Below, piece by piece: positions 473-20,300 of a DNA stretch of 37,899 nt. The stretch is from Stramenopiles sp. TOSAG23-2 (lineage: Eukaryota), in NCBI GenBank assembly GCA_900128395.1, contig LT649322.1, positions 1-37,899 on the forward strand, given 5' to 3'. The first letter of the stretch is position 1. Each line of letters begins with the position of its first letter. The position numbers and the translations under genes are program-made. The notes under the pieces are model-generated. The model was given only the letters and a program-made list of their open reading frames with translations, did no database searches and had not been told where the DNA came from.

Positions 473-1507
473 ATGGCGAATGTTAGATTAATATGTCGTA
501 AAATTGGTATAACTTCTTCACGTGTCATTGAAAAGGCAAGTGAATTATACCGTATTAGCAAAATACGTAGGCCTGTGTTAGGTCGTGCAGAATTTGCAAG
601 GAGTGCACTGTGTGTTGATTGTGCATGCCGAGTATGTGATGAAACACCTCGAGATATAAACCATTTAATTAAATTAGGTGGTATTAATAAAACCATGTAT
701 AATAGTTTATTAGGACAATTTCAAACCTTATTAAATATACGAGTAAAAGCAGCGCATTCCACGCGTAGTTTGGCGATCCAATTTGGCGTGTCAAGCATGG
801 TGCCATTTATTGAAGCAACGTTAGCAACATTTAAAGAGCGTTTCATCAATTCATTAGCAGAGGAAAGGAAAGCGCATGTTAAATTTACTAGTCCAGCATT
901 TAAAGCTGCAGCATTTTTTCTATGTGCACAAAAACGTAAACGTGTATTGGATAAATATAAATTATTAAAATTAACAGCCGTTGATGCACATGAATTTAAA
1001 AGTACATGTAATGTTATGTTGTTACATTGTTTTGATACATTAGGTGTAGGAGAAAAAAAAGATTTAATTGCTATAACTGATCATCGTGAATTAATGGATA
1101 ATTGTAAAGTATCTAATATTAATCAAAGTAGTGAAGTTGAAAAAGAACGTGAATATCAAGAATGGAAAAAAAAAGTTTTAGAAAACCGTCGAGCAGGTAG
1201 TAGTAGTAGTAGTAGTAGCAGTACCAGTAACAAGAATATAATAAAGAAACGCAAGCAATTGTTAGATTCTAATAATAATAACGCAAATGATGAAAATGTT
1301 CCAAACAAAAAAAAAGTAAAACAAACAACATTATTACCTTTACCAGCAATGATGAAAGAAAAAGGAAATGATAAAATTGTTAATGAAAAAACGACGACGT
1401 CGAAGAAGAAAAAGGCAATAACAACAACAGATATTAATGTGAAAAGTAAAACCCAACAACCAACAATTGATGATTTTGTAAATGCTTTATTGCAGCATGG
1501 AAACTAA
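473..1507 (+). CDS. ORC6: Origin recognition complex subunit 6
   Basis: 344-aa ATG ORF. The N-terminal helical region is TFIIB/cyclin-like (KASELYRIS...ALCVDCAC...LAIQFG...F...AAAFFLCA), followed by the ORC6 C-terminal signature EYQEWKKKVL (cf. DYEEWKRKIL) and a low-complexity tail. Confidence 0.85.
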   Translation: MANVRLICRKIGITSSRVIEKASELYRISKIRRPVLGRAEFARSALCVDCACRVCDETPRDINHLIKLGGINKTMYNSLLGQFQTLLNIRVKAAHSTRSLAIQFGVSSMVPFIEATLATFKERFINSLAEERKAHVKFTSPAFKAAAFFLCAQKRKRVLDKYKLLKLTAVDAHEFKSTCNVMLLHCFDTLGVGEKKDLIAITDHRELMDNCKVSNINQSSEVEKEREYQEWKKKVLENRRAGSSSSSSSSTSNKNIIKKRKQLLDSNNNNANDENVPNKKKVKQTTLLPLPAMMKEKGNDKIVNEKTTTSKKKKAITTTDINVKSKTQQPTIDDFVNALLQHGN

Positions 1508-1644
1508 AAAAATAAAATATATATATAAAATGTGTATTTTAACATATCATATTAAATACGAGTATGTAATAACATCACATGTTATACATGTGTGATGTGT
1601 GGACTATTCCGCCTGTATCATTACCATATATTTTTATTTTTTTT

Positions 1645-3630
1645 TTACACACTACCACCTCTCCTAGCTTTTAAATAATAACGTAATGGTCTTGAATACC
1701 CTTCAATAGTTTGCATTTGATCCTCACTCAATGCTTCTTTTAAACTACGTACATTAGCCCATTCTGTACGTCTTTGTTCCTCTGTTGATAACGGTTCCGC
1801 GAAAAAAACTTTAATATTTATAAAGCCACTACGAGTTAACCAATGTTTCAATGTCGATATAGTTGGTAAAAAATATACACCTTTCATATTTGCATATTTC
1901 TTTTTTGGGAAAAGTGCAACATCTTCCTCACCTTCAATACCTTGACAATCAACAACAATTTCACCTTTTGATTTTAAACTAGAATTGATTTTACGCAACA
2001 TTCCAACTGGATCTGGTGTATGGTATAATACTCCAAGACAAAACACAACATCAAATGTTTGTGGAAATAGATCCATATGTTCACCTCGTAATAATTCAAA
2101 TTTCAAATTTTTTATTTTCGTAAAATGTTGAAAGACTTGATATTCAAGCCATGCATGTAAATTAGGATCAAGACCAATTAGAAATTCAGGTTTTTCATTT
2201 AACATCCTATATAAAAAATAACCATTGCCGCATCCAACATCACATATTACTTTTCCTTTTAACTTCGGCATGTGTTTTAATATTCGTTCCCATTTCCAAT
2301 CACTTCTCCATTCTGAATCAACGTTCACACCAAAAATATTCCAAGGTCCTTTTCTCCATGGCTTTAAATCTTCTAGCAAATCTTCAACTTGTGCTTTACT
2401 TTTCGTATCAATTGCATTTTCTAAACCAATTTCAATAATACTTTGATTTACAACTAAATGTTTTGTTGATGGTGCAACATTAATTTCCTTTAATTTTTTA
2501 GCAATATTATCATATCCATCCAACGTTTTCGGGTTTAATCTTCCTTTTTGATAAAATACAGTACGTCGAGCATTTATTATTTTCTCATAATTTCGATATG
2601 TACCATTTGATAATGTATTTAAATATCTAGCTTCAGAATCAAAGAATGAATTTAAATTTGGTGTCTTGGCAACACTTCTACTTTGTAATTTTCCACGTTT
2701 ACGTGCAATAATTGATAAGAAACAATTCCATTTAACACATGTTTGTACGAAATCAAATCCAGCTGAATATAAGGAATCAATAATTTGTTGTTCAGTATAT
2801 GGTATTAAAACATTTTCCAATGCATTTTTTTTATTTGCAATGTATTCTTTGGTGTAACCACGTCGATGTTTAAAATCTTCATATACATATACACATGTAT
2901 TTTGTATATCCTTATCCGGGCTACGTACTTTTTCACTAATAAATAATATACCATCTTCATTTAAGTTATCATAAATCTTATGCAATAATTCATCTCTATT
3001 TTCATATTTAACAAATTGCAAGGTATAATTTAATATGCATATGGATGCATTATTAATTGGAATGTTACAAATATCATCTTTGATAATTGTTATATTGTGA
3101 TCTGCTTTACCATATTCCAATTTCTTTTTACATTCATTTATCATAGCGTCTGATTCATCAATTCCAATTAAATTCAATACATGTTCTGAAGCTGGAATTG
3201 CTTGAATTATATAATCAAACGTCGTTCCAGTACTACATCCTAAATCATATATATTAGTATTTGGTTGGTAATATTTTGCTACCATGTATAATAAAAAATC
3301 AATTGTTTCTGAATATAATGGCACAGAACGAGAAACCATATCATCAAACACATCAACTACTTCTTTATTAAATCGAAATGGTTTTGGTCCTTGCTCTGGT
3401 TCATTATATAAATTATCAACTGCTCCAACTAAATTTAATGAATATCGTATATCAGCTGGTGGTGGACCAAGTTTCGCACCAATATCATTGTAATCATTTT
3501 TAACGTTTCTCGTATCATTTGAAAATTGTTTGGAAGAAAATTTTTGATATATATAATACGCTGATGTACTAACAGCTGCACCACATATGATACCCAAATA
3601 GAATGGTTGCGAAGATGAAGATGTATTCAT
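1645..3630 (-). CDS. cmoA-cmoB: Fused carboxy-S-adenosylmethionine synthase (CmoA) + tRNA 5-hydroxyuridine carboxymethyltransferase (CmoB), with N-terminal hydrophobic anchor
   Basis: First ATG at 3630 (MNTSSS, 661 aa; the track's 3705 start is non-ATG). CmoA motifs ~3400-2700: FRFNKEVVDVFDDMVSRSVPLY, YDLGCSTG, ILNYTLQF, LFISEK, FKHRRGY...ALENVL, AGF. CmoB motifs ~2690-1648: PWRKGPW, VDSEWRSDWKW, DVGCGNGY, FDVVFCLGVLYH, YANM, EEQRRTEW, TIEGY..P.R. Single uninterrupted frame. Confidence 0.92.
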   Translation of the reverse strand: MNTSSSSQPFYLGIICGAAVSTSAYYIYQKFSSKQFSNDTRNVKNDYNDIGAKLGPPPADIRYSLNLVGAVDNLYNEPEQGPKPFRFNKEVVDVFDDMVSRSVPLYSETIDFLLYMVAKYYQPNTNIYDLGCSTGTTFDYIIQAIPASEHVLNLIGIDESDAMINECKKKLEYGKADHNITIIKDDICNIPINNASICILNYTLQFVKYENRDELLHKIYDNLNEDGILFISEKVRSPDKDIQNTCVYVYEDFKHRRGYTKEYIANKKNALENVLIPYTEQQIIDSLYSAGFDFVQTCVKWNCFLSIIARKRGKLQSRSVAKTPNLNSFFDSEARYLNTLSNGTYRNYEKIINARRTVFYQKGRLNPKTLDGYDNIAKKLKEINVAPSTKHLVVNQSIIEIGLENAIDTKSKAQVEDLLEDLKPWRKGPWNIFGVNVDSEWRSDWKWERILKHMPKLKGKVICDVGCGNGYFLYRMLNEKPEFLIGLDPNLHAWLEYQVFQHFTKIKNLKFELLRGEHMDLFPQTFDVVFCLGVLYHTPDPVGMLRKINSSLKSKGEIVVDCQGIEGEEDVALFPKKKYANMKGVYFLPTISTLKHWLTRSGFINIKVFFAEPLSTEEQRRTEWANVRSLKEALSEDQMQTIEGYSRPLRYYLKARRGGSV

Positions 3631-4346
3631 TTTGTTTCTTTTAATATATATATATATTAAAATTATTAAAATGTAGAAAAAAAAAAAAAAAGAAGAGAAG
3701 ACCAAATTGAAAATAATTAAATAAAATTATTGTATCTTCCTTCTAATGCAGTAATCAATTGTTAAACGAACGATAGCTGATGGGAAAATCAACAGGATTG
3801 TGTGTTTTTAAATAGAATTTCTTATTGAACATGAAAACACATACAAGAAACGTGCAAACCGTATGCATATCTAATGTATAGAAATAATAAATAAATAAAT
3901 AATTTTTTTTGTGTTTTTTTTTTTTTTATGGTTTGTAATTTATTCTAATGCTGTGTACCCTGTATATAATATTTTAATAATTTTCTCTTTAATTACTACT
4001 ACTCATTCATTATTTTTGTTGTATCATCATATGTAGTTTATTTAGTGGCATTGCGCAAGTGTAAATACTCGTACGAACTTCGTAGTAGGGAAGAGACTTG
4101 GTCATAAGATATATATGACGTATATATAATGCGTAAATAAAATTATATAGATATATCATATATACTCTTGTATCTTTTTTTTTAACACATAAGAGAATTA
4201 TTTTTAATTTTTATATCTCTTTTCTCTGCTAGTGAAAAAAATCACAGAAAATACGTATGTTAAGGATTTCATATCTCTCTGACTATGATATATATCTGCA
4301 TATTATATATAAATTATATCTCATATCATACGCCGTGTATAAAAAT

Positions 4347-5399
4347 TTAAAATCTTCTTATACTATCAATTAATGCACGACTGCCATCACCAACAAGCAT
4401 TCGTTGATTCTTTCGTATCAATTTTTTTTTTCCCTTAGTAGTGCTATTATTATAAACATCTTGATCATCATTTAAATGATATAATAAATCTTCTGTATTT
4501 TTCACTAATAAATTGCTTAATGATGGCAATTCTTGTTCCACAGTTTCAGATAACATACCAACAAATCTTACGGAATATATTGTTGGACCTGGTCGTAATA
4601 CAGTTTTCATAAATTCAATTTTAACATATAAACATGGTACATGGCCTAGACGTATATTATTCATACGTCCTTTGGATAGAAATTTCACCGTTTTCGCTAA
4701 ACGTAATTTTTTTTTACTTTTTTCCTCTCCAACATAAATTTTTACACTATCGCAATCTTTATTATAAATATCAACAGTAGATAATAAAGATGGACCATCT
4801 GTAAATTTAAAAATTATATATTCAGTTGAAACACCAGTCGCTTGCCAAAATTTCTTTTTATTTAAAATTCTCAAATATTTCGCTTCTTTATTACATGCTT
4901 GGCTGGAATATTTAACAATAGAATATTTTAACTTTCCAAAACCTGTACGATCAGCATATGATCCTGGTGATGGGGGTGGTATTTCTTCAGACGACGATGG
5001 TGGTGGTATTAAAGATGATGATGATTTTTGATTTTTTTTCTGCTTAATATTATTATTATTATTATTATTATTATTATCCTTATTATTTGAAATGATTAAC
5101 CCTTGATAGGATATATCATGAAAGGTTTGATTTTCAACTTCATCAACATGTGTTGAAATACTAAATACTTGTTGATTTTGTGTTCGCAAGGTTCTGTCAA
5201 ATTTACGATTGACTGCATATGGATCATATTCCGATATTCGTGATGCATTATATGCCAACACTTGAGGGTCCAAAGGTTCATTTAAGACTCCTAATTTCGA
5301 AGATGGGTTCGTTTTTAAGTATGCCAACAATGGATCATGTCGTTGTTGTTGCGACGTTGATATTCCACGATATTGCGACGTCAATGCAAACGAACTCAT
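4347..5399 (-). CDS. Hypothetical protein with C-terminal galactose-binding-like beta-sandwich (XRCC1 N-terminal/IFT25/muskelin-N-like)
   Basis: 350-aa ATG ORF. The segment IVKYSSQ...EAKYL...FWQATG..EYIIFKF....LSTVDIYN....VKIYVG...YVKIEF...IYSVRFVG matches the pattern of discoidin/galactose-binding-like domains. N-terminal half is low complexity. Confidence 0.55.
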   Translation of the reverse strand: MSSFALTSQYRGISTSQQQRHDPLLAYLKTNPSSKLGVLNEPLDPQVLAYNASRISEYDPYAVNRKFDRTLRTQNQQVFSISTHVDEVENQTFHDISYQGLIISNNKDNNNNNNNNNIKQKKNQKSSSSLIPPPSSSEEIPPPSPGSYADRTGFGKLKYSIVKYSSQACNKEAKYLRILNKKKFWQATGVSTEYIIFKFTDGPSLLSTVDIYNKDCDSVKIYVGEEKSKKKLRLAKTVKFLSKGRMNNIRLGHVPCLYVKIEFMKTVLRPGPTIYSVRFVGMLSETVEQELPSLSNLLVKNTEDLLYHLNDDQDVYNNSTTKGKKKLIRKNQRMLVGDGSRALIDSIRRF

Positions 5400-5976
5400 T
5401 CTTTGGCGTCAAAAATATACATACATGTACTATATGGTATATCCTACAATTTATATCATGTTTTCCATCTCTTCTCCTGCAATTGTTTTTCATAATATTA
5501 TTTGTTTTTTTTTGTTATTTTTTAACGTTCTTCATCTTCTGGGGGGGGTAAAAATGATAATTAAGGTATAAAACAACAGGGGAAAATACCTTAGATATTT
5601 GTTGAAAATAAATTTGCATTTTAACATTACACAATGATAAAATAAGAAAGAGGAAACGTTCATTGTATTTCGGAAATTTCATACGTAAAAAATTAGTAAA
5701 AAGGGGTGACATATGGAAAATATGGAAACAGCATGCAGCCTTTTTTTTTTTTAAATTTTGAATCGTCGCTCCTAATTAGGATAATAATTATATTATACAA
5801 ACATAATACTTTATATTTATTAATAACTGTAGTAGTATAGATACATACATACATACATACATACATAGATCTGTAATTGTAAATATATTACTACGTATAT
5901 TGTATTTACAAAATAACTTTCTATATATTATTATTTGTTCGTGACATCAACTTATATTTTTAAAATAAAAAAAAAC

Positions 5977-8799
5977 ATGGAATTAGCGTTAAAAAGACAG
6001 GATTATTTTCAAGTCAATTCATGTTCCCACCGAGATACAATGGTGATATTGCCAAAGTCAAAAAAAGGCAGGCAGTATATAACAATTGGGGACGATTCTG
6101 GAGAAATAAATACATTCGATATGAAACGTGGTGAGAAAAAGCAGAAATGGAGAAGTATTGTTAACAACGCACCAAAAGAAGAAGGTGGAAGAAAAATTCA
6201 TGGTAATATCAAAAATCAAAATGCAGCAAGTGTTGAGAGTACAGAAATAACAGCTTTGTCCTTATCAGGTGTGGAGGAAGTTAAAATATATGTATCAACC
6301 GAGAATGATGTATATGGAATATCTACAAGCAAAGGCAAAGAGGCCGGTACTAGACATTTTGAATCGAATATGACTGAAGTAATAGAAAATTTAAACGTGC
6401 AACTGGACCAATATTGGACGTCTGGAGAATACGTATTTAGTATGCATGAATATGATAATGATGGTACTAATGAACAACCGTTTAAAGAACGTGTTTTCTA
6501 TTCATGCCAAGATAGAATTAATGATTTTGATATAAAAAAAATAACAGCAAAACCAAATAGTTTAAAGACTGGTATTTTAGGATGTGATGATGGCACCATT
6601 CGTACTGTTGATGGGAAAACAGGAGAATTAGCAGCTGAGGTTAATGTGAAAAAATCAGTCACTAGAATTTATATACCAAAAATGGTATCCAATGGGGTTG
6701 GTATAACTGAAGAAAACTATGTATCTTCCAATGATGTTATCTTCGGAACACGTCGAGGTAATATGGGTGCTATATCTTTCAATGCAGACAATGAAGCAAA
6801 AAAATTATGGGATGTAAAAGGAAAAAGGAAAAGTAATTCTATCAATAGCTCGCCTAAAGGTATACGACAAGCAGCTATTACATGCATTAAAGAGTATGAT
6901 ATGACAGAAGATGGTAGAAACGATTATATTGTAGGTAGGGAAGATGGATCGATCCAAGTTTATGTAAAACGTGATGAAGATTCAAAACCATTTGAAAACT
7001 TTCGTTCATCCGTACAAGAAACGATACAAACACTCGCTGCTGGGTTTATATCAAGCCCGGAAAATAAAGAAATAATTATAAATACGTTTTCCGGTCGTGT
7101 CATGTCCTTTAAAAATGAAAGAGATTTAATGGAAAAGGTTGTGAATAAAAAAGGCTACACTTCGACGGTTGGTGCTAAGGCAAAAGAAGAAACTTTACAG
7201 GGTTTAGATACAGAGTTGAAAGAATTGAGAAAAGAAGTACAAAAAGAGACGAAAAATTTAAGAAAACAAATGGGGACGGAGAAAAACAAAGATAGTAACG
7301 CATATAGTATTATAAGGTCATTAGATATGAAATTTAAAGTCAAAGTAGTATTCGATTTGTTACAAGATGATGCAGCATATAAATTAGGCATTGAATGTTC
7401 AACTCCGATTGAACAAATTATATTAAAAAGTGATATACCAGTTGACATTATGGATATGGACGACACGGAAACAATAGTATCCATAACAAATACAAATTCA
7501 CAACAGCGTGGTCCGCAACCCATACTAGCGACTTTTAGAAATGATCAGATGGAAGAAACTGGATTTATCAATGGCATGGGCCAAGATAACAATGGCGAGA
7601 CGGAAAGTAAAACTAAAAAAAGTAAATCGAAATCAAAAAAATCTGAAGAAATCACATATCTTAGGAAAAAAAATCCAATTACCTCAAAGCGAATGGAATT
7701 AAAAGTACGTACAGTGGAGGGACAAGCTGGCGCAATTACGTTATATGTAATACCAGCAAATAACGAAAATTTCCAAGACGAAGGGGATGAAATTAAATTT
7801 GGCCAAACTGCGCATAGTGTCACTATTGGTGTGATGCCTTTATCACTTCATTGTAGAACGGAACGGCCAAAAATACCAATAGAAAAAATGCCATTAAATA
7901 TTTTAGAACTGCAAGGGTACAGTTCAATAAACCAAGTGCATGAGTGGTTACGTAACATACTGCCAAATTTTCCGCGTCGAGCTATGGATCAGCAAAATCA
8001 GGCTTATTTCTATGAAAATAGTCTTGTGGGATCATTGCTTGCTATAGAATATCTGGATAACAAAGTTTTATTGTCATCCGATTCAATATCGACAATATCG
8101 ATATTGAAAGAGACCATTAATAGACTTGCAATGCGTGTAAATGTTCGGATTAGCTTATCTATCCGTATCAATGAAATGTCAGTTGTCCGCTTCTTAGCTT
8201 TGGTTGAGCCAAAGCTACAAGCTCAGTTAGGCTTGGCAACAAAAATAAAATGGTTAGATGGCTTAGCAGAGGTTACAGGTGGTGGAAACCCGTCATATTT
8301 ATCAACTGAATTACGTAATACATTAAACAATGCAAAACAAATTAAATATGACTTTAAAAGAAGTGCAAAATTTATACAATTTTGGTATGGTGTAATTACC
8401 GATTTGTACATCGATTTAAATCGTTGCCGTGGTGTAAATGCTTCTCATAACATCCCAAATTTGATGAATGCTTTGGAAAATTTTAACATGGACAATATCT
8501 TAAACTTTTTTGGAGTTAAACGTGGAGATATAGATAAACATTTCGAACAGGCTGAAAAAGATAAAATGGAAATGAAATTAATGGAGAAAAAGCGCCGAAA
8601 GGAGCGCAAGAAGAAGAAGAAGAAAGAGAAAGAGAAAAAGTTACAGAATCGAAATAATAATGATGAAAAAAGTATGAGTGGTGGAGGTGACCAACAATTC
8701 GGTGAAAAGGGAAATAATGATAAAGGTGTTGAAGAAGAAGAAGATATTTCAAAAAGAAATGAAGATACTAATAATACAAATGGTAAAAAGAAGAAGTGA
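5977..8799 (+). CDS. BBS7: Bardet-Biedl syndrome 7 protein (BBSome subunit)
   Basis: ATG at 5977 gives MELALKRQDYFQV, which resembles the BBS7 N-terminus MDLxLxRxDYxQV. Beta-propeller motifs (DMTEDGRNDYIVGREDGSIQVY, IINTFSGRV), a coiled coil, then RMELKVRTVEGQAG, PLSLH.R, HEWL...LP, SDSISTISILKE and YGVITDLYID. Extra K/E-rich tail. Confidence 0.93.
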   Translation: MELALKRQDYFQVNSCSHRDTMVILPKSKKGRQYITIGDDSGEINTFDMKRGEKKQKWRSIVNNAPKEEGGRKIHGNIKNQNAASVESTEITALSLSGVEEVKIYVSTENDVYGISTSKGKEAGTRHFESNMTEVIENLNVQLDQYWTSGEYVFSMHEYDNDGTNEQPFKERVFYSCQDRINDFDIKKITAKPNSLKTGILGCDDGTIRTVDGKTGELAAEVNVKKSVTRIYIPKMVSNGVGITEENYVSSNDVIFGTRRGNMGAISFNADNEAKKLWDVKGKRKSNSINSSPKGIRQAAITCIKEYDMTEDGRNDYIVGREDGSIQVYVKRDEDSKPFENFRSSVQETIQTLAAGFISSPENKEIIINTFSGRVMSFKNERDLMEKVVNKKGYTSTVGAKAKEETLQGLDTELKELRKEVQKETKNLRKQMGTEKNKDSNAYSIIRSLDMKFKVKVVFDLLQDDAAYKLGIECSTPIEQIILKSDIPVDIMDMDDTETIVSITNTNSQQRGPQPILATFRNDQMEETGFINGMGQDNNGETESKTKKSKSKSKKSEEITYLRKKNPITSKRMELKVRTVEGQAGAITLYVIPANNENFQDEGDEIKFGQTAHSVTIGVMPLSLHCRTERPKIPIEKMPLNILELQGYSSINQVHEWLRNILPNFPRRAMDQQNQAYFYENSLVGSLLAIEYLDNKVLLSSDSISTISILKETINRLAMRVNVRISLSIRINEMSVVRFLALVEPKLQAQLGLATKIKWLDGLAEVTGGGNPSYLSTELRNTLNNAKQIKYDFKRSAKFIQFWYGVITDLYIDLNRCRGVNASHNIPNLMNALENFNMDNILNFFGVKRGDIDKHFEQAEKDKMEMKLMEKKRRKERKKKKKKEKEKKLQNRNNNDEKSMSGGGDQQFGEKGNNDKGVEEEEDISKRNEDTNNTNGKKKK

Positions 8800-8967: not shown

Positions 8968-11900
8968 TTAACGATTGGTCTTATTATGTTTTAACAACTT
9001 CGTACATTCCTCCAAAGCCAATTTCAATGCTTTTTGAGATCTCTCAAACGATACTCTCAGTTTACGTTTATGATGCTCAGATGTTTCTAACTTTAATTCC
9101 ATTGAATTTAGATCATCAAATAAATTTTGTGATTTCTTCTTCTCGTTTATCAAATTTTTATTCAAGCTTCCAATCTCTTCTTTTAAACGAGCAATTTCTA
9201 AGGATTGTCTTTCTAGCTTTAATTTCTTTTTCATCTCTTCTAACTCCTCGTCGTCCTCATCGTTTTCGTCTAAAGCCAAATTGCTAATATTGTTTAATGA
9301 TACATTTGCTTTTGATTGTTGCTTCAAGCGTTTTTTTCGTTTATTAGTCTTAGATGAATTTCCACTAGCACCCACAGATATTGTAGATACATTTAAATTG
9401 TTCATAGTTTCCATCGCACCAGCAATTTTATTACGAACTAAATCCTCATCTTCTTGTATAGAGCTTAATCGCTTCTTTAAATGCGTTACTTCATTCCTCG
9501 AATTACGCAATTCTCGCTTGAAATTTTCCATTTCAATGGACAATGCCTCCTTCTGCTCAATTAACCTCATATTCATTTCCATGTGTTCGTTTATTGTATT
9601 TGTTGCATTATCCAACAATTTCTTATTTGTGCTCATAGCACCGTCCATTTTACTTTTCAGCAACTCCATTTGATCAAATAAATGTCTTTTATCACTCTCC
9701 ATATTTTGCATTTCAGAATCTTTTTCAATGATTTTCTTCTCCAATTGCAATATACGATCGTCTTTCTCCTTCATATTATTTTCAAACATATGGCCTTTCG
9801 TTTGTATTTGTTCATGATAGGTTTTTGACGCAAAATCACTTTGTTCCCTGGCATTTTTCTCCCGTTTTAATGCAGCGTCAATATTAACAACTTTTGCATT
9901 CAATTCTTCCTGCATTTGATGTGCATTAGCAAGTCGTCGCATGAGGCTTTCCCGTTCCGTATGAAGCTCCGTGATTTCATTGCTATGATTAACTTTCAAT
10001 GTCGAAATATCTTCAATCAACGTGCTTTTTTCCTCTGTAAACTTTGCATTTGTTGTTGCCATTTTTTTCTGCAGATCTTCAACACTATCAACAAGATTTC
10101 TATTGTGTTCTTGTGTGGAACTTAATTCATCGGAAATAATCTGCATTTTCTTTCGTGCTTGAATTAAATTGTTTGACAATTCGTTTGTTTTAGATTGTAA
10201 CCTACTAATTTCTGCTGCGTGTGAAGCTTGTAAATGATTCATCGAGTCCGACATCATTTGTCTCATTTGCGATGATCCAATTTCATTTGATTTCATTTTT
10301 GTTTCTAATGATAAACTTCGCTCCGATGCTAAGCGTAGACCATCTCTTGCCTTTGCAAGTGCAATCCTTAGCTTTTCCAATTCACCATCTTTCATAGATA
10401 TCAAGCTTGAATCGCGTTGATGTTTCATATTCAAACTTTCTTCCATATCTTTATACGCAGCAATACTTGCTTGGGCAGCCTTACGCTCATTTGCTAATAA
10501 TTCTTTTTCATTTTTTAATGCAAATTGTAACTTTTCATTTTTCTCATCGCTTATATTTTTCTCGTTACCGACATGCTGCAGTTTTTCTTTCATATTTTCC
10601 ATTTCTACTGTAATGACCTTATTGTTAATTTTGAATTCATCAGCTTCACTAATTTGTTTTTGTAAATCATTAGACAATTGCTCTATATTTAACTCCATTT
10701 TAGCAATTTTGCTTTCATATGTTTCAACGACTGATTGATTCAACATAGTTACATCACCACTTGTATTATTCTGATTATTCAATTGCGCACTAAGTTGTAT
10801 AATCTGTTCGTCTTTTACTCTAGACTCATGTTCTAGCGTTGCTCTTAAACGTTCCATTTGCAGTGTATGGTTATTTAGATGTTGTACTTGGCTCCGTAAC
10901 GTAGCATTTTCAGCCCACAAGCGCCTTGACGTATCATCTAATTCGCGATATTTTTCCATCACCATCTCAATTCTAGTAGTATATTCTGTAATTGTGTTTT
11001 GCAGTACTATGTTTTGTCTTGACATTTCCGCTTTTGTTTGGCGGTATTTATATTTTAGCTCGTCAATATTCAATACATTAAGATTAATTTCATCCTCGCC
11101 ATCAATATTATTCCCCATGGTGGTAGTAATGTTTGTTTGACGCAACACATTTTTATGGTAATGTGACATGATTGGCTGGCGTTGTGGTATACGAACAACG
11201 TTAAATGATTTGCTATTGTACTTTTGTGGTGTTGATGAAGATGGGGGTATAGAGGCAGCGGTTTCCCGCATTTGTTGTGATATTTCTTTTTCACGTGATG
11301 GAGAGGATTGTTTTTTAACGCTTTTCTTACTATTTGTTTGTCCATTTGCACGTATTGTTGTTGATGATTTTGTAAAGCCAAGTTTCAAACCCATTATCTG
11401 TGCATTTAATTTTTCAGCCAGCTTCAAGCCTTCATCATCTTGAACATCCATAGTCGTATTATTGTTATTATTCACTTGTTGTTGTTTTTCTTCTTCTCGT
11501 CTATTTTCATCATTTTCCTCATCTATGTTGTTTTTACTGCTTAAAATTGTGTTACCTTTATTGCCATTTGGGACGACAACGACACAAGTTGTATCCTCTG
11601 TAATTAATTCTTTTTCTCCTTCAACCTGGGTATTGGCAATTATTATTGAAGTAGTATTTTTATCAATATCACTACCATTGTTCTTTTCATCCGCTGTTGG
11701 ACTTGGTAATGATCCTATAGAATCTTCCAAATTGTCCATTATACCCCCGCCTGTAATAATTTTACTTAATTGCATTGGGGTGTTTAATTTGATCTTACCT
11801 TCTAAACCATCCAGCTGCAGTATCGGTTTCATCAATGTAACAGGTTTCACATCGTTTTTAGTATTCGTGCTAATATTACCAGGAAATTCGATACTATCGT

Positions 11901-13341
11901 CATTACCTAAATTTCTAACGACTAAATTATCGTTGTTGTTGTTAATGCTATTGTTGTTTTTGTTGCTGTTGTCATTCGTTGTTGTCGGTGAATCAATTGA
12001 AATATCCATTAAATCGGCAGCAGTATCAACATTTGTAGTATCGTTTTTACTATTTACGACAGGGCTCCATAATAAATTTCGATCGTTTTTCTCACCATTA
12101 CCTATGAGACTTATTCTTTCCATACCATTCGGGGTACTTTGTAACACTCTAGATGAAAATTTTAATGTTGGTAATACTTGCTCTGAGCTATGTTTCGAAC
12201 GTTGACTAACTTGTCCAATGAATATATTGGTATGCTTCTCTGTAAAAGAGGATTTCAACACGTATGTAAGTTTCGTATCACGACATGCTAGTAGACTGTC
12301 ATTTTTCTCTTGTAAATCTTTTGTACATCTTAAAAAGCTTGATAATGTTAATTGTACATTTTCTGCACCTGGATCATTATTAGTTGCTGCTGAAGATGAT
12401 AAATCTGCAAAATTGATGAAGCGAATGTATGATGTGGAACATTTCCAATTTTTATTAGATGATAATGATTTAGCTGGAGTTGTTCCCCCAAGTGCATTTA
12501 ACTTTGGTGTTTTTGATTTACTGTTTGCCATGATACCAGGTGACGTAGGATCTATACGAGTCCATTTTTCTAATTTAACTTTTACAATCATATGTTGCTC
12601 ATTTGTTGTATTATTATTTTTATTTTTCTTACCATGTTTTTTTTTATGTTTCTTTCGATGATGTATAACTCGTTTTATAACTTTGATAGCTTGATCAACA
12701 TCATCGACATATTTTTCACATAAATCAGGTATTAAAATATCATCATTTCCATCACTTTCCTCTGTTCGTAAATTTTTATTGCTTGTATGTATTAAATCGT
12801 TGATTTTATCTTTTATTATACCACATATTGATATTGATATTTTATATTTTACAAGTGGGCTTTTCTTTTTCATTCGTATTTTTCCGAAATAACTTGTAAT
12901 TGTGCGTGGTATGATACCTAGACCAACTTGCAATTCATCCCCGTGTGTTTTTCCCAGTAATGTATGCTTCCGGCCACTACCTTTTGCACCTAATATATAA
13001 ATGGAAACGTTTTCAGATTGATGAAATGTTTTATTAATATATTCATCTAAGTAAGAATATAAATCAATTTGATTTGTACCAGGGCCAAAGACAGTATCAT
13101 ATGAAAATTTATATTGCTCATCTAAAGTTTCTACATATTTAACAACACCAGCATTGTCATAATTTGTAAAGCTAAGTTGTTGTTTCACTTGGTCATCAGC
13201 TTTGTCATTATTATTATTATTATTATTGTTGTTCTTCCTCTTTGTCTTTTTCTTTTTAACAGGACTATTATTTAAATTATTGGAAGGAACCATACGAACC
13301 AATACACGCCATTCATTATTATTTGTTGTGTTTTTGTCCAT
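8968..13341 (-). CDS. Kinesin-like protein (divergent motor domain + long coiled coil), probable pseudo-ATPase
   Basis: First ATG at 13341. Kinesin fold landmarks: VLVRMVP, FSYDTVF, Q.DLY, SIYILG..GSG..HTL, GIIPR, INDLI, FADL, RDTKLTYVLKSS, TLKFSSR. C-terminal ~650 aa is heptad-rich coiled coil. Confidence 0.8.
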   Translation of the reverse strand: MDKNTTNNNEWRVLVRMVPSNNLNNSPVKKKKTKRKNNNNNNNNNDKADDQVKQQLSFTNYDNAGVVKYVETLDEQYKFSYDTVFGPGTNQIDLYSYLDEYINKTFHQSENVSIYILGAKGSGRKHTLLGKTHGDELQVGLGIIPRTITSYFGKIRMKKKSPLVKYKISISICGIIKDKINDLIHTSNKNLRTEESDGNDDILIPDLCEKYVDDVDQAIKVIKRVIHHRKKHKKKHGKKNKNNNTTNEQHMIVKVKLEKWTRIDPTSPGIMANSKSKTPKLNALGGTTPAKSLSSNKNWKCSTSYIRFINFADLSSSAATNNDPGAENVQLTLSSFLRCTKDLQEKNDSLLACRDTKLTYVLKSSFTEKHTNIFIGQVSQRSKHSSEQVLPTLKFSSRVLQSTPNGMERISLIGNGEKNDRNLLWSPVVNSKNDTTNVDTAADLMDISIDSPTTTNDNSNKNNNSINNNNDNLVVRNLGNDDSIEFPGNISTNTKNDVKPVTLMKPILQLDGLEGKIKLNTPMQLSKIITGGGIMDNLEDSIGSLPSPTADEKNNGSDIDKNTTSIIIANTQVEGEKELITEDTTCVVVVPNGNKGNTILSSKNNIDEENDENRREEEKQQQVNNNNNTTMDVQDDEGLKLAEKLNAQIMGLKLGFTKSSTTIRANGQTNSKKSVKKQSSPSREKEISQQMRETAASIPPSSSTPQKYNSKSFNVVRIPQRQPIMSHYHKNVLRQTNITTTMGNNIDGEDEINLNVLNIDELKYKYRQTKAEMSRQNIVLQNTITEYTTRIEMVMEKYRELDDTSRRLWAENATLRSQVQHLNNHTLQMERLRATLEHESRVKDEQIIQLSAQLNNQNNTSGDVTMLNQSVVETYESKIAKMELNIEQLSNDLQKQISEADEFKINNKVITVEMENMKEKLQHVGNEKNISDEKNEKLQFALKNEKELLANERKAAQASIAAYKDMEESLNMKHQRDSSLISMKDGELEKLRIALAKARDGLRLASERSLSLETKMKSNEIGSSQMRQMMSDSMNHLQASHAAEISRLQSKTNELSNNLIQARKKMQIISDELSSTQEHNRNLVDSVEDLQKKMATTNAKFTEEKSTLIEDISTLKVNHSNEITELHTERESLMRRLANAHQMQEELNAKVVNIDAALKREKNAREQSDFASKTYHEQIQTKGHMFENNMKEKDDRILQLEKKIIEKDSEMQNMESDKRHLFDQMELLKSKMDGAMSTNKKLLDNATNTINEHMEMNMRLIEQKEALSIEMENFKRELRNSRNEVTHLKKRLSSIQEDEDLVRNKIAGAMETMNNLNVSTISVGASGNSSKTNKRKKRLKQQSKANVSLNNISNLALDENDEDDEELEEMKKKLKLERQSLEIARLKEEIGSLNKNLINEKKKSQNLFDDLNSMELKLETSEHHKRKLRVSFERSQKALKLALEECTKLLKHNKTNR

Positions 13342-14150
13342 TTTTTTTTTTTTTAATATATGTAATTCACCAAACAAACAAACAAACAAAATTCCAGTGT
13401 CTTTTATTCAATATATAATATGATATTATCTCACACGCAATACTTCTATACTTTCTTTTTCGGTTTACCTTAGCACATGTATATATATGAATAGATTATG
13501 TATATATATACGTCTACTTTGTATGCTTTTTTCCATTGAATCACACGTACTCTCTTCAGCAATAAATAATATTTCTATAGTTGCTTTTGGAAATCCAGGA
13601 AAATATATAAGTTTATGTTAACGGCCGGATTGCCAGGATTGATTGTCGAATTATTACCTTAAATTGGGAACTTTTTTAACCGAACACGAACAAATGCTAA
13701 ATTATTATATTTCGTATTTTAATTGTATATTAATTAGTAAGTAAAGTGATGATGGATGGACTAATTTTGGTCATTTTTGGTGAAGATGAAAGTTGGATGA
13801 AAATTTAGGTCGGCGCACATGTCAGAGTTAACCCTCCCGAATAACCTTAATGCGAATCCAAACATCAACTCTCACTTAAACTGTTATTTTTATTATTACA
13901 TTTGGAATGGTGGATTGTGCAATTTAAATTTCAAATAATTATTATTATTTATTTCGAAAAAATTATTATCAATAAATAAAATAGAATTATACGAGGTAAA
14001 TAGCATTGTAAATCAGTGGTAAATTTTCATTCTTCCAAAATTTTAATTATTTAATTTTAATTTAAAAAAAACTACTCCAAGTGTTGATGAAAACCAATGG
14101 GAACAGCAGATACGAATGGCAAGAGAAAGATCATAACAGAAAACTTTATT

Positions 14151-14387: not shown

Positions 14388-17300
14388 ATGGCAGATAAAG
14401 TTGTTGTACCAAGAAGACCGCCAAATCCTATTGTAACAGGAAAACGTAGTATTCATATGACACGTGCACCACTTATATATACAAAAGGCACTGGTAGTCA
14501 ACGTGTGCCTGTGTTTGCAAGAGTTATTCCATCCATGCCAAAAGCACCGTCCGTGGAGACAAAAATACCGTTACCGCCATCCTCCACTACGGATCAACAA
14601 CAACAACCTATGACACCAACAAAGCGACAAAATATATCGCCAAATACCAATAACGATGGTGATGATACATATAACAATGATACCTTTAACAGAACACCGC
14701 CTGAATCACCAATAGATCCTAAAGTTGTAGGCTTAATGATAGAACAACGCAGAAAAGATTATGCGGAACGACTAAGGGAAAGACATAAACGTATATACGT
14801 CAAACCACAACATAATATATTGAAAATAGATTCAACAAATACTAGTAGGAAAAAAAATAATAATAATAATAGGAAACGTACACAAAAAGTTAAAGTAGTG
14901 AGGGATAAATGGGAAGGTCGACCAGAAGAAAAAGCTGCTATATTAACAAACAATGCAATTAAACGTAGCGAAGATGCTATGAGAAAGTTGAAAGAAGACC
15001 GTTTAATGGAACAAAGAAAAAAAGAAAGTGCAACTGCAAGGCGGTTACGTGTGAACGAAATGGGACGTTTAATACGGCAACAAAATAAAATAAGAATGCA
15101 AGAAGAGATGATGCGAGCAGCAACAGCAGCAGATGATGATGATAGGTTTGATTATGAAAATGAAAATTTTGATAATATATCTAATATGGGACAGGCAAAT
15201 ATAGATAAACAAAATGCGGTACACATTTTACGGAATGACAAAACTGGGGAACAGGAAATTTTAAAAACAGTTATAAGCGATAATATTCTTGGAACGAATA
15301 TGGAAGAAAATCAATTTAATAACATGGTAAAACGGAGTACGATACATCGTCCGCCTCAAACAAAAAGCAGAAAGTTAGTGATGAAAAATGCAGTGCCTCC
15401 ACGACCTAGGAAACCACGAGTACCGCGTTTAAGTGGTAATAGAAGTGTTGGAAATAATGCGAAAAAGAATAAACGAAATAGAGGATACGAGAGTCAAGTT
15501 AAAAAGAAGCGTAAACCACCTGTACCACGATTAAGTGGTAAAAGTAAAAGTAATACTCGAAATAACAATGGTGGTAATAATCACAATAACAACAACAATC
15601 GCAATAGTAATAAAACAAAAACAAGTAAAAATGGATTTAAAATAGCATCTTCCTCAAAAGTTAATTCTGCCACGAATCCGGTTAATAAGGATAACGATGA
15701 TGATGTAAATATAACTAAAGAGAATGAAAAAAATAGAATTCAAGAATTTATAAAAGAAAAAAGAAAACGTCGACGTCAGGAGAAAAAAAATGAAACTTTA
15801 AAAGAAGCAAAGGAGGATCTATTGAGAAGAAAACGTTTGAGACAATTAGATGAAAAATTTAAAAAACGTCGTGAAACCATTAAAAGACGAATAGCGGAGG
15901 AAGCAAGAGAAAAAAGCAAACGGAAAAAGGCAAGGAGAAAAATGATGAAGAGATTAAGAAAGGAAAAAAAACGGTCAAAAAAAACTACTATTGACGATTT
16001 ACCAAACCGTGCCAATTTAATTAGTGGTGATATATACAGCAATGCTGAATATGTCAATGACAATTTAGTGGACCAATTTGAATGGCAAGCAGTTGAAACG
16101 AATGGTGATGAGTATTACAATGATACCGATGATATGGGGTATGATAGACAATTAAGTCCAAGTCCAGTAAGCATGATGAATGATATTACGCCATCTAATA
16201 GCAGGCCTACAAGTAGTCTTGCACAGCCTTACTCTCAAAATAATATGAATATGGATCAAGGTGGTGAATATGGGAATGGAGAGGACGATGCTGATTTTCT
16301 AAATCGAGAAGCGTTGCTCAATGGAGTAGGTATAGTTTCAGATAGCAATGCCGTGAAACAACAGCAAGCGCCATCTTCGTTGCAAAAACAAAGTGATTCA
16401 GGAGATTTAAATATAAACTCAGATTATAGAAAATTAGTCGAGCAAAGTGCCGGTGGCCAACATGTTACTGATGAGCAGCAACAGGTTGATAATAGCAGTA
16501 GCGATCCACAAGAACGAGAAATTATTCTGAATCGAATGAATGCATTAAAAAGAGCAACTGAGCAATTATCTGCACGTATATCTGTATTATCGTCTCAAAA
16601 AGGAACGTCGGGGGATACGGGGGATATGGATGCAACGATCGTAAAACAAATGGCCATCCCAGCGGATTTGCAGGCGGAAGAGGCAATCGAAAGGGACAAC
16701 ATGCGAAGGGCTAAAGATACGTTAAAAAGTAACCAGCGGGTCGAAACTGAATCGGCGCGACACATTCATCGTTTAGTGAAAGAAGTTGCAAATGCTGAAC
16801 TGCCAGAGTATTTGGATGATGAAGATGCCAATAAATCGAAGGGTAATGTTAAAAAAAATGTTGAAAGAAATAATAAAAAAGTCCAAGTTGTTGAGGAATT
16901 CAATATCCAAAAGGATGATCTCAAGAAAAATAATAATAAGTATGAGGAAGAGGAAGATGATGAAGATTATGAGGATGAATTTGATTCAGATGGCTACGAT
17001 GATGACGAGGATGATGGAGAGAAACCTGGTGTAACATCATTATCGACCTCAGTCAGGCTAAATAATGATACATCTGTTAATGTACAGAACGATATTAGTA
17101 ATCGAGCAAAGAGTGTTGGAAAAGCAACAGGTTCTTCCCCAACGATAAAAGAAGTGCAGACATTGCAACAACAAGATTCACAATTTAACAATGTCTTAAA
17201 AGATGCTCATGACTTATTTCAGAAGCATTCGAAACTTGTCGATGAGAGTTATCCTGAGCAGAAATTGAAAATATCGTCTACTTATGATGCAGATGATATT

Positions 17301-20300
17301 AATACTATTCCAACCACAACTAACCCAACAGTTAACCTCAAGTTAGCTGCTGAAGCTGCTGCTGCTGTTGCTGCTGCTACGCGTGCCTCAAGAGAAGCTC
17401 TTGATAGAGCACGGGAACTAGAAGCCGATTCCAAAATTGGTATATTGTCTGTTAAAATTAATGGTACTAGGCGTGAGAATAATTTCGGTGGAAGCAATAA
17501 TGATGTCGTTCAAAACCCAGTTATCATAGAAAATGATTTCAAAATGTCACCAAGGGCGTATGATATAGTCGACTCATATAGTATATTAGACATATATGCA
17601 CAAGATGCAGTCCAACACGAACATTATCAAAAAGCTATGGTAATACGAGATGAAAAATTGAAGAAACAAGAGGAGGAAAAGGCGACAGAAATGGAAGAAG
17701 AGCAGAAGCAAGCGACGGTAGCGATCCAAACAGGTACATATTGGGACACGATGCTAATGAAGGATAGTTCACACAATGTGACTGAAGAGCGAGGTGTTGG
17801 TGGAAAAGGAGTTGTAGAAATCGATCCTAAAAATGAGCAACAAATACGAGAAAATTTACCATCTCCACATTTTCTAAATAATGATACTACAGATACAAAT
17901 AACGATATTAGTGTGGAAGATGTGCCGATGGTTCCTTACTCGCCCCCTCGAAGTTTACCAATGGAAACCGAGAAAATTAAACGTTTATCCCCCGGGTCAT
18001 TATCTCGAAAATTGCTTGCTGAGGTAGATCTATTACAAGAACTAACGGAGTCGGAAAAGCAATTAGATGCCATTGTACATGCAAACGAGTTACAAATGGC
18101 ACAAAAAGAAACAATTGAACTAGCTAATCAATGGAATGCGCAACAAGAAGAAGCAGCACAATTAGCAGAACGAGTTGCCGCAGAGCAGGCTCATGCTGCG
18201 GAAATGCAAATGCAGGCAAGTCAAATTACGTTGACCCTACAAGCTGCACACGAGGAGCAACTCCTTTCAATGAATGCGCACTTAGAAATGATACGCAAGG
18301 AAAACGAGGCTGCAAAGATTAGGGAAACTGGGGCTCAAACTACTCAAGTTGTTACTTTAAACCAAGGTACCGATCCAGAGCAAAGAAGTGCAAATAATCA
18401 AAGCATAGCGCTTAGCACTGGAGGTTTGATTTTTGATGCACGGTCGCCAAATGCTGATAGGACCGTAGATGATTTAATTGAAAACACGCAAGAATATTCT
18501 GCTGACTTTGAAATTGGAGACGATAGTACATTGCAAAGTTCGAAAAAGTCTATAAGAAAAAAAAGGAGCAGTAATGATGATAGCGAAATCCCTGATGAAA
18601 TTGATGAAAGCTTGTCTGCGCAACAGGAAACACAAAATCAAACGCAAATGGAAAGCATTGCGGAGGAGGATTTTGTGAACCATGAGGCATCCATGCAAAG
18701 TATCGTGGAAGATTATGTAGAAGATTTTGAATCTGTAAAATCTGAAGAAATATTAATTGATGACAGTATTAAAGAAGAAAATAGTGCTATTGGCCGGCTT
18801 GACGGTAGCAATAGAAGTATAGTAGAAGAGACAGATTTGGAAAGAAGTACCAAGCGTTTGATTAAGAAAATTCAAAAAGATATGGAAACTCGTCATAGAC
18901 ATGAGAACGAACTTTTAGATGTTCGCGAAGCAGCAATCAAAGAACGCACGAAAGAACGAATGAATTTATTAGAAGAAGGACAGCAAGTTCATTTGCAACA
19001 ATTATCAGTAGAGGAGATTGCTAATGAACGAGATAGAATAACATATACCTTTAAAAAGAATATCGCGGAGGTGCAACGACAACGAGCCTCGTTGCAAGTG
19101 CGCCATTATCGGGAGATTTTGAAGTTGCGATCTCGCCAAAAGATTTTGGATAAATTGTCATCAACGGAGAATGATGAGTACTCAAGTGACATGGAGTCTG
19201 ATATTGTTACAACAGATGATGATGGCGGCGGACGATCTAAATCACCGCAATCAATCGCTGAGGATAAAGATTTAATCATAGAAGAGCCTCAATCCGTTAT
19301 TGGAAAGGATAAAAACTTTTCCCGTGCTGAATCTTTTGTATTAGAAGTAAGGGAAGTTGATCATGTGGAAGATGAAGTGGTGGAAGTAGCGGACGAATTT
19401 GAACTGAATGTTCAGGAAGAAAGTGTCCAAGAAGACTTGAAATTCACTGATAACGAATCCTCTCGCGCATTAAAACGTAGTTTATCTCGTACATCGGAAG
19501 CTTCAGTCGATTACGTTGATGATTTTGAAGACGACTTTGAGGATGATGGTTTAGTAGATGATTCAATTCGAATGCAAGCAATTTCACAAGAATTAAAATC
19601 TTTGCAACGAAGGGTATCCTCAGGCGAGACACAGGAGTCCTCTACTGATTCGGAGGAGGCTCAAAGCCTAAAAAAGCGCGAGGCAGAATTGAAAAAGAGA
19701 CGAGAAAAGGCTGAAAAATTATTAAGAGAAAAACAGAAAATCGTTGAACGTGCTCGAAGACGCGAAGTATTGGAAGCGGAGGAGAAAAAAGTAAACGATT
19801 TATTGGAACGAGCATTAAAGTATGACGTGGAAGAGGAAATTAAAAAATTAAAGTCAGCAGATGAGCAAAATAAGACACAGATGCACCGTACTAGTAAATT
19901 GTCACCGGTGCAACAGCAATTATTGCAGAATCAAAAAATGCAGCGGGAGTTGAAGGAAGAACAAAATAATGACAAATCAGTCATATCAAATATTCCTTCG
20001 GAGGATGAAGATGTTGTGGATGAAGTAATAACCGTGCATGAAACAAGCACGTCTAGAATGGAAGATTCTTATGGCGATGATACTTTTGAAGATTCCAATC
20101 GTAGCATTACGAAGAAAATAATGTCATCCCCAACACCAGTAAAGAAGAAAGAAAATGAGGAGATCAGCGAAAGTCCCACTAATAATAAAAAGGCTAATAC
20201 TAAAACAACATTTACAATTGAAGATGACGAGGAGGAATCTATTTCAATCGAAAGCGACATTGTTATTGAAGATGATGATGTTGAAGATAATGTTGATATT

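Follow-up and report, generated by a model that had tools for sequence, protein, structure and literature searches.

Putative membrane-anchored CmoA-CmoB fusion encoded by a nuclear gene of stramenopiles and other protists

Contig LT649322.1 of the Stramenopiles sp. TOSAG23-2 assembly (GCA_900128395.1), analyzed here over its positions 1 to 37,899 (37,899 nt, referred to as the window), carries on its minus strand, at 1645..3630, a gene in which the tRNA-modification enzymes CmoA and CmoB are fused in one chain. We put at roughly 60% the probability that this is a nuclear gene for a membrane-anchored bifunctional enzyme that, besides making carboxy-S-adenosylmethionine (Cx-SAM), carboxymethylates 5-hydroxyuridine at position 34 (ho5U34) of tRNA and, as part of the same joint figure, that the family descends from a bacterial cmoA-cmoB pair of a non-gammaproteobacterial type. 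What we infer here comprises both enzyme activities, the tRNA acceptor, the membrane topology and the compartment. The CmoA domain would convert S-adenosylmethionine (SAM) and prephenate to Cx-SAM, and the CmoB domain of the same chain would transfer the carboxymethyl group to 5-hydroxyuridine (ho5U) at tRNA position 34, yielding uridine 5-oxyacetic acid (cmo5U), which would widen the wobble reading of four-codon boxes; ho5U would be supplied by a TrhO-type hydroxylase encoded elsewhere in the genome. The Cx-SAM/ho5U34 mechanism of CmoA and CmoB is summarized in PMC10491745. TrhO homologues are widespread in eukaryotes, for which a modification of the 5-oxyuridine (xo5U) type has been predicted (Sakai et al. 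2019; PMC6599085), and the hydroxylation step therefore has a plausible eukaryotic supplier. Neither the U34 hydroxylase (TrhO/TrhP) nor the chorismate mutase family was found among the scanned open reading frames (ORFs) of the window. An earlier note, made on this DNA from its letters alone, had proposed that the fusion could channel Cx-SAM between the two domains; such channelling is possible, but nothing in the analysis supports it and it is pure speculation.

The fusion gene is a single intron-free ORF, called over 1645..3705 (-), with its stop codon at 1645-1647. The first ATG, at 3630, gives a protein of 661 residues plus the stop (P0001). Because the 25 in-frame codons upstream of this ATG begin with TTG and have a phenylalanine-rich product, the ATG at 3630 was taken as the start; a database protein of 662 amino acids (aa) with 99% identity to P0001 (P0002) fits a start at or near this position, and P0001 is collinear with full-length homologues (alignment A1). 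The fused coding sequence (1645..3630, minus strand) is further overlapped by an RNA-library contig over 1631-3566. This metatranscriptome contig (1942 nt) is collinear with the locus and spans both domains; it differs from the locus at 8 letters and contains neither a gap nor a joint. Contigs of a poly(A)-selected metatranscriptome cover 1826-2487, 2489-2912 and 3148-3370, a contig of an oligo-dT library covers 1754-2661, and a separate seawater DNA run holds a contig over 1664-3630. These four public runs were aligned to 1300-4400 as assembled contigs, which show presence and collinearity and not strand or expression level, and DNA carried over into the RNA libraries is possible. Overall, the stretch 1300-4400 is present in public runs from 13 studies, most of which are marine metagenomes; RNA libraries account for six of the runs that contain it.

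The C-terminal half of the protein (aa 367-657; 1660..2532, minus strand) was assigned to CmoB, the tRNA U34 carboxymethyltransferase, with NF011650 (327.7 bits versus a cut-off of 209; NCBIfam), TIGR00452 (320.9 versus 275) and PF08003 (Pfam; E = 2.4e-88, score 296.6 versus a cut-off of 23.8), and a PDB sequence search matched this part to 4qnu (3.8e-61). The CmoB-specific N-terminal region, which comprises about 100 residues before the Rossmann fold, is mostly kept, with profile positions 36-323 of 324 matched; the first ~35 profile positions are missing or replaced by linker. In E. coli CmoB, Tyr200, Lys91 and Arg315 hold the carboxymethyl group of Cx-SAM, and a K91A mutation abolishes cmo5U formation (PMC10491745). 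By alignment with 4qnu, these residues correspond to K427 (codon 2350..2352, minus strand; Lys91), Y536 (2023..2025, minus strand; Tyr200) and R650 (1681..1683, minus strand; Arg315) of P0001, each of which is invariant in 81/81 aligned CmoB rows; the proposal, drawn earlier from three short motifs, all of which are indeed there, that the Cx-SAM-binding residues of CmoB are conserved is thus borne out.

The CmoA (carboxy-SAM synthase) domain occupies aa 72-311 (2698..3417, minus strand), where TIGR00740 matched over positions 2-239 of 239 with 208.0 bits, versus a cut-off of 193.3 (NCBIfam). Both halves therefore exceed NCBIfam equivalog cut-offs, in agreement with the description of a single frame carrying a complete CmoA-type domain followed by a complete CmoB-type domain. 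The CmoA part matched PDB entry 4gek with 2.2e-40 in the sequence search and with 4.1e-41 in the later alignment used for residue mapping. The contacts of CmoA with SAM and Cx-SAM, including the salt bridge of Arg199 to the Cx-SAM carboxylate, were described by Byrne et al. (2013; PMC3663124), and they were mapped by hand from the 4gek alignment, assuming a 14-residue tag offset that puts the Tyr at position 39 as reported there. On this mapping, Y106, D129, G131, S133, D158, N201, F206 and E233 of P0001 correspond to Tyr39, Asp62, Gly64, Ser66, Asp89, Asn132, Phe137 and Glu164 of E. coli CmoA. Seven of these eight cofactor contacts are invariant in 89/89 rows, and N201 is Asn in 88/89 with Gln in one row.

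The position of Arg199 is occupied by a lysine in P0001 (Lys268; codon 2827..2829, minus strand, also hand-mapped from 4gek), so that the positive charge is kept; this change was overlooked in the earlier note. Lys was found here in all 28 eukaryote-type rows, a label that rests on architecture (the tree rows with a named eukaryote being P0013 and P0025 only, with P0007, P0021 and P0044 coming from eukaryote-only collections), and in all 10 cyanobacterial rows, as well as in named rows from Oligoflexus, Oligoflexales, Bdellovibrionota, Myxococcales, Planctomycetota and Chloroflexota. The single Bdellovibrio row is the one with Arg among the named non-gammaproteobacterial rows, while Arg was found in 13/13 gamma-type locus rows and in both bacterial fused rows. 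Moreover, the position of CmoA Asn90 is a Glu in the subclade of the window protein (5/28 eukaryote-type rows). Taken together, the Lys and Glu substitutions could indicate a relic, in which one or both domains are inactive and the protein now serves a structural or regulatory role. We consider this improbable, given that Lys is the rule at this position in the non-gammaproteobacterial clade, including proteins named CmoA by NCBI from genomes that also encode CmoB, that the other CmoA cofactor contacts are nearly all invariant (88-89 of 89 rows) and the three CmoB carboxylate contacts entirely so, and that the ORF is intact and present in RNA libraries.

Between the NCBIfam envelopes of the two domains lies a linker (aa 312-366; 2533..2697, minus strand) that runs into the CmoB-specific N-terminal region. 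The AlphaFold2 model of P0001, built with 19 homologues, has a mean predicted local distance difference test score (pLDDT) of 83.7 and a predicted template modelling score (pTM) of 0.71, and pLDDT falls to 63 at aa 311-320. Foldseek comparison of this model with CmoA chains gave target-normalised template modelling scores (TM-scores) of 0.91-0.92 (0.92 for 4gek), and comparison with whole CmoB chains gave 0.83-0.88 over 332-337 aligned columns (0.88 for 4qnx).

Upstream of the CmoA domain, P0001 carries a hydrophobic segment at aa 10-28 followed by Lys and Arg residues (3547..3603, minus strand), which is a predicted membrane anchor by Kyte-Doolittle hydropathy and AlphaFold2. Its best 19-residue Kyte-Doolittle window has a value of 1.26 at aa 10, and in the model aa 7-40 form a helix and aa 36-66 a linker of low confidence. 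According to alignment A1, the eukaryote-type fusions share an N-terminal extension in which a Gly/Ala/Ser-rich hydrophobic stretch is followed by basic residues and then by the motif LGPPxxDxRY, which in P0001 occupies aa 54-63 (3442..3471, minus strand), with the anchor on one side and the CmoA domain on the other. In 50 fused homologues the CmoA start is complete and preceded by at least 30 aa of N-terminal extension. Of these, 48 contain a 19-residue window whose mean Kyte-Doolittle value is at least 1.0, and in 37 the value is at least 1.6; this window lies mostly near residue 10 and is mostly followed by a net positive charge over the next ten residues. The bacterial fused proteins P0055 and P0060 have no N-terminal extension, and LGPPxxDxRY, which is not found in them, is specific to the eukaryote-type fusions. 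We infer from these sequence features that the N-terminal segment is a membrane anchor, a conserved feature that had been overlooked in the earlier note. Under the positive-inside rule, the predicted catalytic part would face the cytosol from the endoplasmic reticulum or from an organelle outer membrane; a conceivable alternative is a Bcs1-type anchor in the inner membrane, in which case the enzyme would reside in the mitochondrial matrix. Inspection of the diatom N-termini by eye, with no predictor used, revealed no obvious bipartite plastid signal.

Several observations weigh against a tRNA-modifying CmoA-CmoB enzyme. The CmoA half stays below the cut-off of a second CmoA model, PRK15451 (156.4 versus 285), the replacement of the hallmark salt-bridge residue Arg199 by Lys weakens the case further, and a conserved membrane anchor is unusual for an enzyme that modifies tRNA. 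The RNA evidence is a weak point as well, because assembled contigs cannot exclude carried-over DNA. With regard to the modification itself, the accessible text of PMC2956550 gives Arabidopsis, poplar, yeast and calf liver as lacking cmo5U, that of PMC8877259 states that xo5U derivatives were not found in Chlamydomonas, and mitochondria are described with unmodified U34 in the part available of PMC8879553. Finally, the CmoA/CmoB homologue pairs TglE/TglF and MccS are known to work on non-tRNA acceptors (PMC10491745).

In line with this last point, the fusion may make Cx-SAM and carboxymethylate a non-tRNA acceptor near its membrane, such as a small molecule, lipid, peptide or protein, by analogy with TglE/TglF and MccS. 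The hydrophobic anchor of 48 of the 50 fused homologues with an extension, together with the predicted helix at aa 7-40, would fit such a role, as would the conserved eukaryote-specific LGPPxxDxRY motif, which is without known function, and the fact that cmo5U in eukaryotes goes unreported in the accessible parts of PMC2956550 and PMC8877259. This explanation is possible, yet we hold it to be unlikely, because the CmoB half clears two equivalog-level CmoB models by a wide margin and keeps both most of the CmoB-specific N-terminal region and the overall CmoB fold, and because no better-scoring model of another carboxymethyltransferase family was found among the 25 NCBIfam rows listed of 34. In a related and likewise doubtful scenario, Cx-SAM, hitherto known as a metabolite of bacteria only, would be made in diverse eukaryotes by an ancient membrane-tethered fusion, and the acceptor would be something other than ordinary cytosolic tRNA, that is, a lipid, a protein, a small molecule or an organellar RNA at the membrane. 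A bifunctional enzyme that acts on ho5U34 of tRNA thus remains the preferred interpretation.

Further analysis of homologues indicated that this fusion is not a peculiarity of one genome. A word-indexed protein search yielded 80 matches, of which 62 contain both domains as scored with hidden Markov models (HMMs) built from non-fused bacterial proteins. Among the fused homologues is Chaetoceros tenuissimus GFH58728.1 (P0013; 672 aa), which is encoded on a 2.45-Mb scaffold and was automatically named 'tRNA (mo5U34)-methyltransferase'; the other named carriers are Chaetoceros curvisetus (EP00553; P0026) and Pirum gemmata (EP00122; P0025), which is an ichthyosporean and hence an opisthokont. Two MMETSP transcripts marked 'complete' (P0007 and P0021) are also fused, and a Pteridomonas danica fragment (P0200) contains the CmoB part only. 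Identity among the eukaryote-type fusions falls to 38-50%, which points to an old family, and the window gene is an ordinary member of an old fusion family of diatoms and other protists, not one unique to this genome. When 1.84 billion representatives (50% identity) were searched exhaustively, 850 proteins had E <= 1e-30; among the 150 of these that were listed, 10 have at least 500 aa (a fusion length, not all of them checked for both domains) and the rest are CmoB- or CmoA-sized, suggesting that the fusion family is real but small. The ESM Atlas returned only bacterial CmoB clusters (score 0.91) and therefore gave no information on the fusion. Fused proteins are already in public databases under automatic names, and what is new is that the two enzymes of a known pathway occur in eukaryotes on a single, anchored chain; a literature search, with most subscription journals outside its coverage, yielded only reviews and work on bacteria and found no published account of CmoA or CmoB in a eukaryote. 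As a side observation, the diatom-like proteins P0033, P0037, P0042 and P0053, predicted from metagenome or NCBI contigs, exit alignment A1 at the same point (around columns 850-860), after a conserved Ser that is followed by Val-Ser. This shared exit would fit a common intron beginning with GTAAGT that was read through by a prokaryotic gene caller, as judged from the protein only.

The origin of the family was addressed with one tree for each half, computed with IQ-TREE in quick mode under LG+C20 with posterior mean site frequencies (PMSF), with support from the Shimodaira-Hasegawa-like approximate likelihood ratio test (SH-aLRT) only and no bootstraps. The CmoB tree comprised 81 rows (27 of the eukaryote type in which the domain is complete, 2 bacterial fused rows, 12 named and 27 unnamed of 120 listed, and 13 of the 80 bacterial loci described below), with fragments and most unnamed rows left out, and the CmoA tree comprised 89 (28 eukaryote-type, 2 bacterial fused, 19 named and 27 unnamed of 120 listed, and 13 loci). 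In the CmoB tree, the 27 eukaryote-type rows form one clade (SH-aLRT 100), located inside a group (98) with the cyanobacteria/Chloroflexota type, with the gamma-type and Campylobacterota sequences across that branch. In the CmoA tree, the eukaryote-type rows group with three fragments of 332-362 aa at 86-90 SH-aLRT. Their sister (94) consists of the non-fused proteins P0272, P0274 and P0277 (250-261 aa, from short contigs), and both together fall within a group (96) that also contains cyanobacteria, Bdellovibrionota, Planctomycetota and Myxococcales, separate from the gamma type (100). P0272, P0274 and P0277 could represent either the lineage of the donor or a eukaryotic form without the fusion. 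P0003-P0006, from marine sources, make up a separate subclade together with the window protein.

The nearest named non-fused CmoB proteins are those of Chloroflexota metagenome-assembled genomes, Trichodesmium, Hydrocoleum, Microcoleaceae and Aerosakkonemataceae (47-50% identity), and the nearest named non-fused CmoA proteins are those of Oligoflexales/Oligoflexus, Planctomycetota, cyanobacteria and Myxococcales (43-45% identity). The E. coli operon, to which the earlier note had compared the gene, is only a loose parallel, each half falling into a different bacterial subgroup of cyanobacterial, Chloroflexota, Bdellovibrionota and similar sequences. Since both trees leave open how the eukaryote clade, the cyanobacteria-Chloroflexota group and some unnamed rows branch from one another, any named donor was rejected, a plastid (cyanobacterial) origin included; that the ichthyosporean Pirum carries the fusion speaks further against an origin from the plastid alone. 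A separate observation concerns locus L072 of Candidatus Leptofilum sp. (Chloroflexota), whose cmoA and cmoB fall within the gamma-type clade in both trees, whereas other Chloroflexota-labelled proteins (P0155, P0161 and P0343) sit with the cyanobacterial type, pointing to transfer or mis-binning.

The earlier note had also proposed that the bacterial operon was acquired horizontally and fused in this protist. The bacterial origin of the genes stands, as indicated by the nearest non-fused relatives and the trees, but the event was not one of this protist, given the eukaryote-type clade with a support of 100 for CmoB and 86-90 for CmoA. A recent, lineage-specific acquisition followed by fusion would be in keeping with the bacterial identity of the closest non-fused relatives and with the short distance between neighbouring bacterial genes: cmoA is followed by cmoB at all 79 loci that carry the two, which share a frame at 68 and have exactly one stop codon between their frames at 46, so that read-through or a point mutation could easily fuse them, although these proportions are biased by the fused query with which the loci, mostly gammaproteobacterial, were found. 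Even so, we find a recent acquisition highly improbable, considering the single eukaryote-type group in each tree, the N-terminal anchor and LGPPxxDxRY motif common to the eukaryote-type fusions, the age indicated by identities down to 38-50%, a codon usage that is fully host-like, and carriers that span a stramenopile and an opisthokont.

Fusion appears to have occurred more than once. No bacterial one-ORF fusion in a matching frame was found in the best 80 loci from 185,579 species genomes; the long ORF of L050 lies in another frame and L075 carries only the CmoB part. Since these 80 loci were picked by their likeness to the bacterial fused query P0055, they are mostly gammaproteobacterial and uninformative on the donor. 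The sister of P0055 itself is a Thiothrix locus, in the CmoB tree (99) as well as in the CmoA tree (93), and P0060 is found in the gamma-type clade on a long branch. An approximately unbiased (AU) test on the CmoB data rejected one clade of all 29 fused rows (log-likelihood difference 188.9, p = 1.9e-6); the tree was already known when this group was drawn up. The two rare bacterial fusions thus arose on their own, separately from the eukaryote-type fusion.

The genes surrounding the fusion are eukaryotic. A convergent ORC6 gene lies at 473..1507 (+) (PF21913, 3.2e-20; PF05460, 4.7e-10), with a gap of 137 bp between its stop codon and that of the fusion gene. On the other side are a 350-aa ORF of uncertain identity at 4347..5399 (-), which matches XRCC1_N only weakly (7e-5) and contains a long stretch of Asn residues; BBS7, encoding a ciliary BBSome subunit, at 5935..8799 (+) (four BBS7 Pfam domains, best 7.9e-49); and a kinesin gene at 8968..13389 (-). 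Further flanking eukaryotic ORFs encode a peroxidase-ankyrin protein, an RWD protein and a Na/H exchanger. The fusion gene has a GC content of 0.299 and a GC content at third codon positions (GC3) of 0.154, within the GC3 range of its neighbours (0.154-0.277), its relative synonymous codon usage (RSCU) correlates with that of the pooled neighbours at 0.98, and no composition break was seen. The ORC6/BBS7 setting and the host-like codon usage described from the letters alone are hence confirmed by the Pfam matches, GC3 and RSCU, and the fusion is a resident eukaryotic nuclear gene.

Bacterial contamination or a chimeric assembly within a eukaryotic contig could be suspected, as both domain families are described as bacterial in the literature and the accessible text of PMC3663124 states that CmoA homologues occur only in bacteria. 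The eukaryotic flanks and matching codon usage argue against contamination, as do the eukaryote-only N-terminal extension, which is missing from the bacterial fused forms, the presence of homologues on large contigs such as the Chaetoceros scaffold, and the independent seawater DNA contig together with the recovery of the stretch in runs of 13 studies, and this explanation is hardly credible. The linkage of the fusion gene to ORC6 rests on the window assembly itself: none of the aligned public contigs covers 1508-1611 or bridges 3796-4200, and since these stretches are flagged as low-complexity, the missing bridge to ORC6 is no evidence either way.

Other parts of the window contain several unusual ORFs. 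The largest, at 14388-22184 (+), is uninterrupted over 2598 aa, with no Pfam family at E <= 1e-5. The peroxidase-ankyrin ORF at 29450-30718 (-) encodes 422 aa and combines a haem peroxidase domain (PF00141, 2.5e-49, aa 32-259) with C-terminal ankyrin repeats, an unusual combination, and an ORF of 306 aa at 27249-28169 (+) encodes leucine-rich repeats and a C-terminal Notch LNR domain (PF00066, 7.1e-5). Scans of the window for tRNA genes and Rfam families found none.

In the literature consulted, cmo5U and its cofactor Cx-SAM are regarded as bacterial. An intact and conserved CmoA-CmoB fusion in RNA libraries makes the xo5U prediction of Sakai et al. (2019) directly testable, all the more as the carriers, some of them culturable, range from diatoms and an ichthyosporean to uncultured marine protists that are abundant. 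Were cmo5U the product, decoding in eukaryotes or in organelles of theirs would gain a new layer; were the anchor a sign of a different acceptor, the fusion would represent new Cx-SAM chemistry and a previously unknown eukaryotic carboxymethylation system.

Of the known systems compared, E. coli CmoA (PDB 4GEK/4IWN) and CmoB (PDB 4QNU/4QNV) are of the same families as the two halves of the window protein, which follow the CmoA-then-CmoB order of the adjacent bacterial genes. The folds are alike (TM-score 0.92 and 0.88, respectively), and CmoB Lys91, Tyr200 and Arg315 as well as the CmoA SAM contacts are kept. By contrast with the E. coli pair, the window protein is one chain encoded by a nuclear eukaryotic gene, with a ~60-aa anchored N-terminal extension and Lys for CmoA Arg199; identity in structural alignments is ~36% for CmoA and 31-34% for CmoB, and the trees place it with another bacterial subgroup. 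The nearest non-fused relatives, the cyanobacterial/Chloroflexota/Bdellovibrionota-type CmoA and CmoB (Trichodesmium, Hydrocoleum, Microcoleaceae, Oligoflexus; 49-50% identity for CmoB and 44-47% for CmoA), share the Lys at the Arg199 position but, unlike the window fusion, are separate proteins without an N-terminal anchor. The bacterial fusions P0055 (579 aa) and P0060 (563 aa) resemble the window protein in having both domains on one chain, and differ in lacking the N-terminal extension, in having Arg at the 199 position and in falling within the gamma-type clade.

Compared by description only, TglE/TglF, for 3-thiaglutamate, and MccS, for microcin C, rely on the same chemistry of Cx-SAM (PMC10491745) but sit in bacterial natural-product gene clusters, a context that is not present at the window locus. 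Fusion of bacterial-type xo5U enzymes in stramenopile nuclei has a precedent in Phytophthora and Phaeodactylum, where yceA (trhO) and trmR form one gene (Sakai et al. 2019; PMC6599085); TrhO-TrmR, which is not encoded in this window, is a different pair that combines a hydroxylase with a methyltransferase and gives 5-methoxyuridine (mo5U). The fusions of Chaetoceros tenuissimus, C. curvisetus and Pirum gemmata have the same architecture and belong to the same clade as the window protein, and those sequences that include the N-terminus have the anchor and the LGPP motif too. Their identity to the window protein, which represents a separate subclade of the family, is 47-49%.

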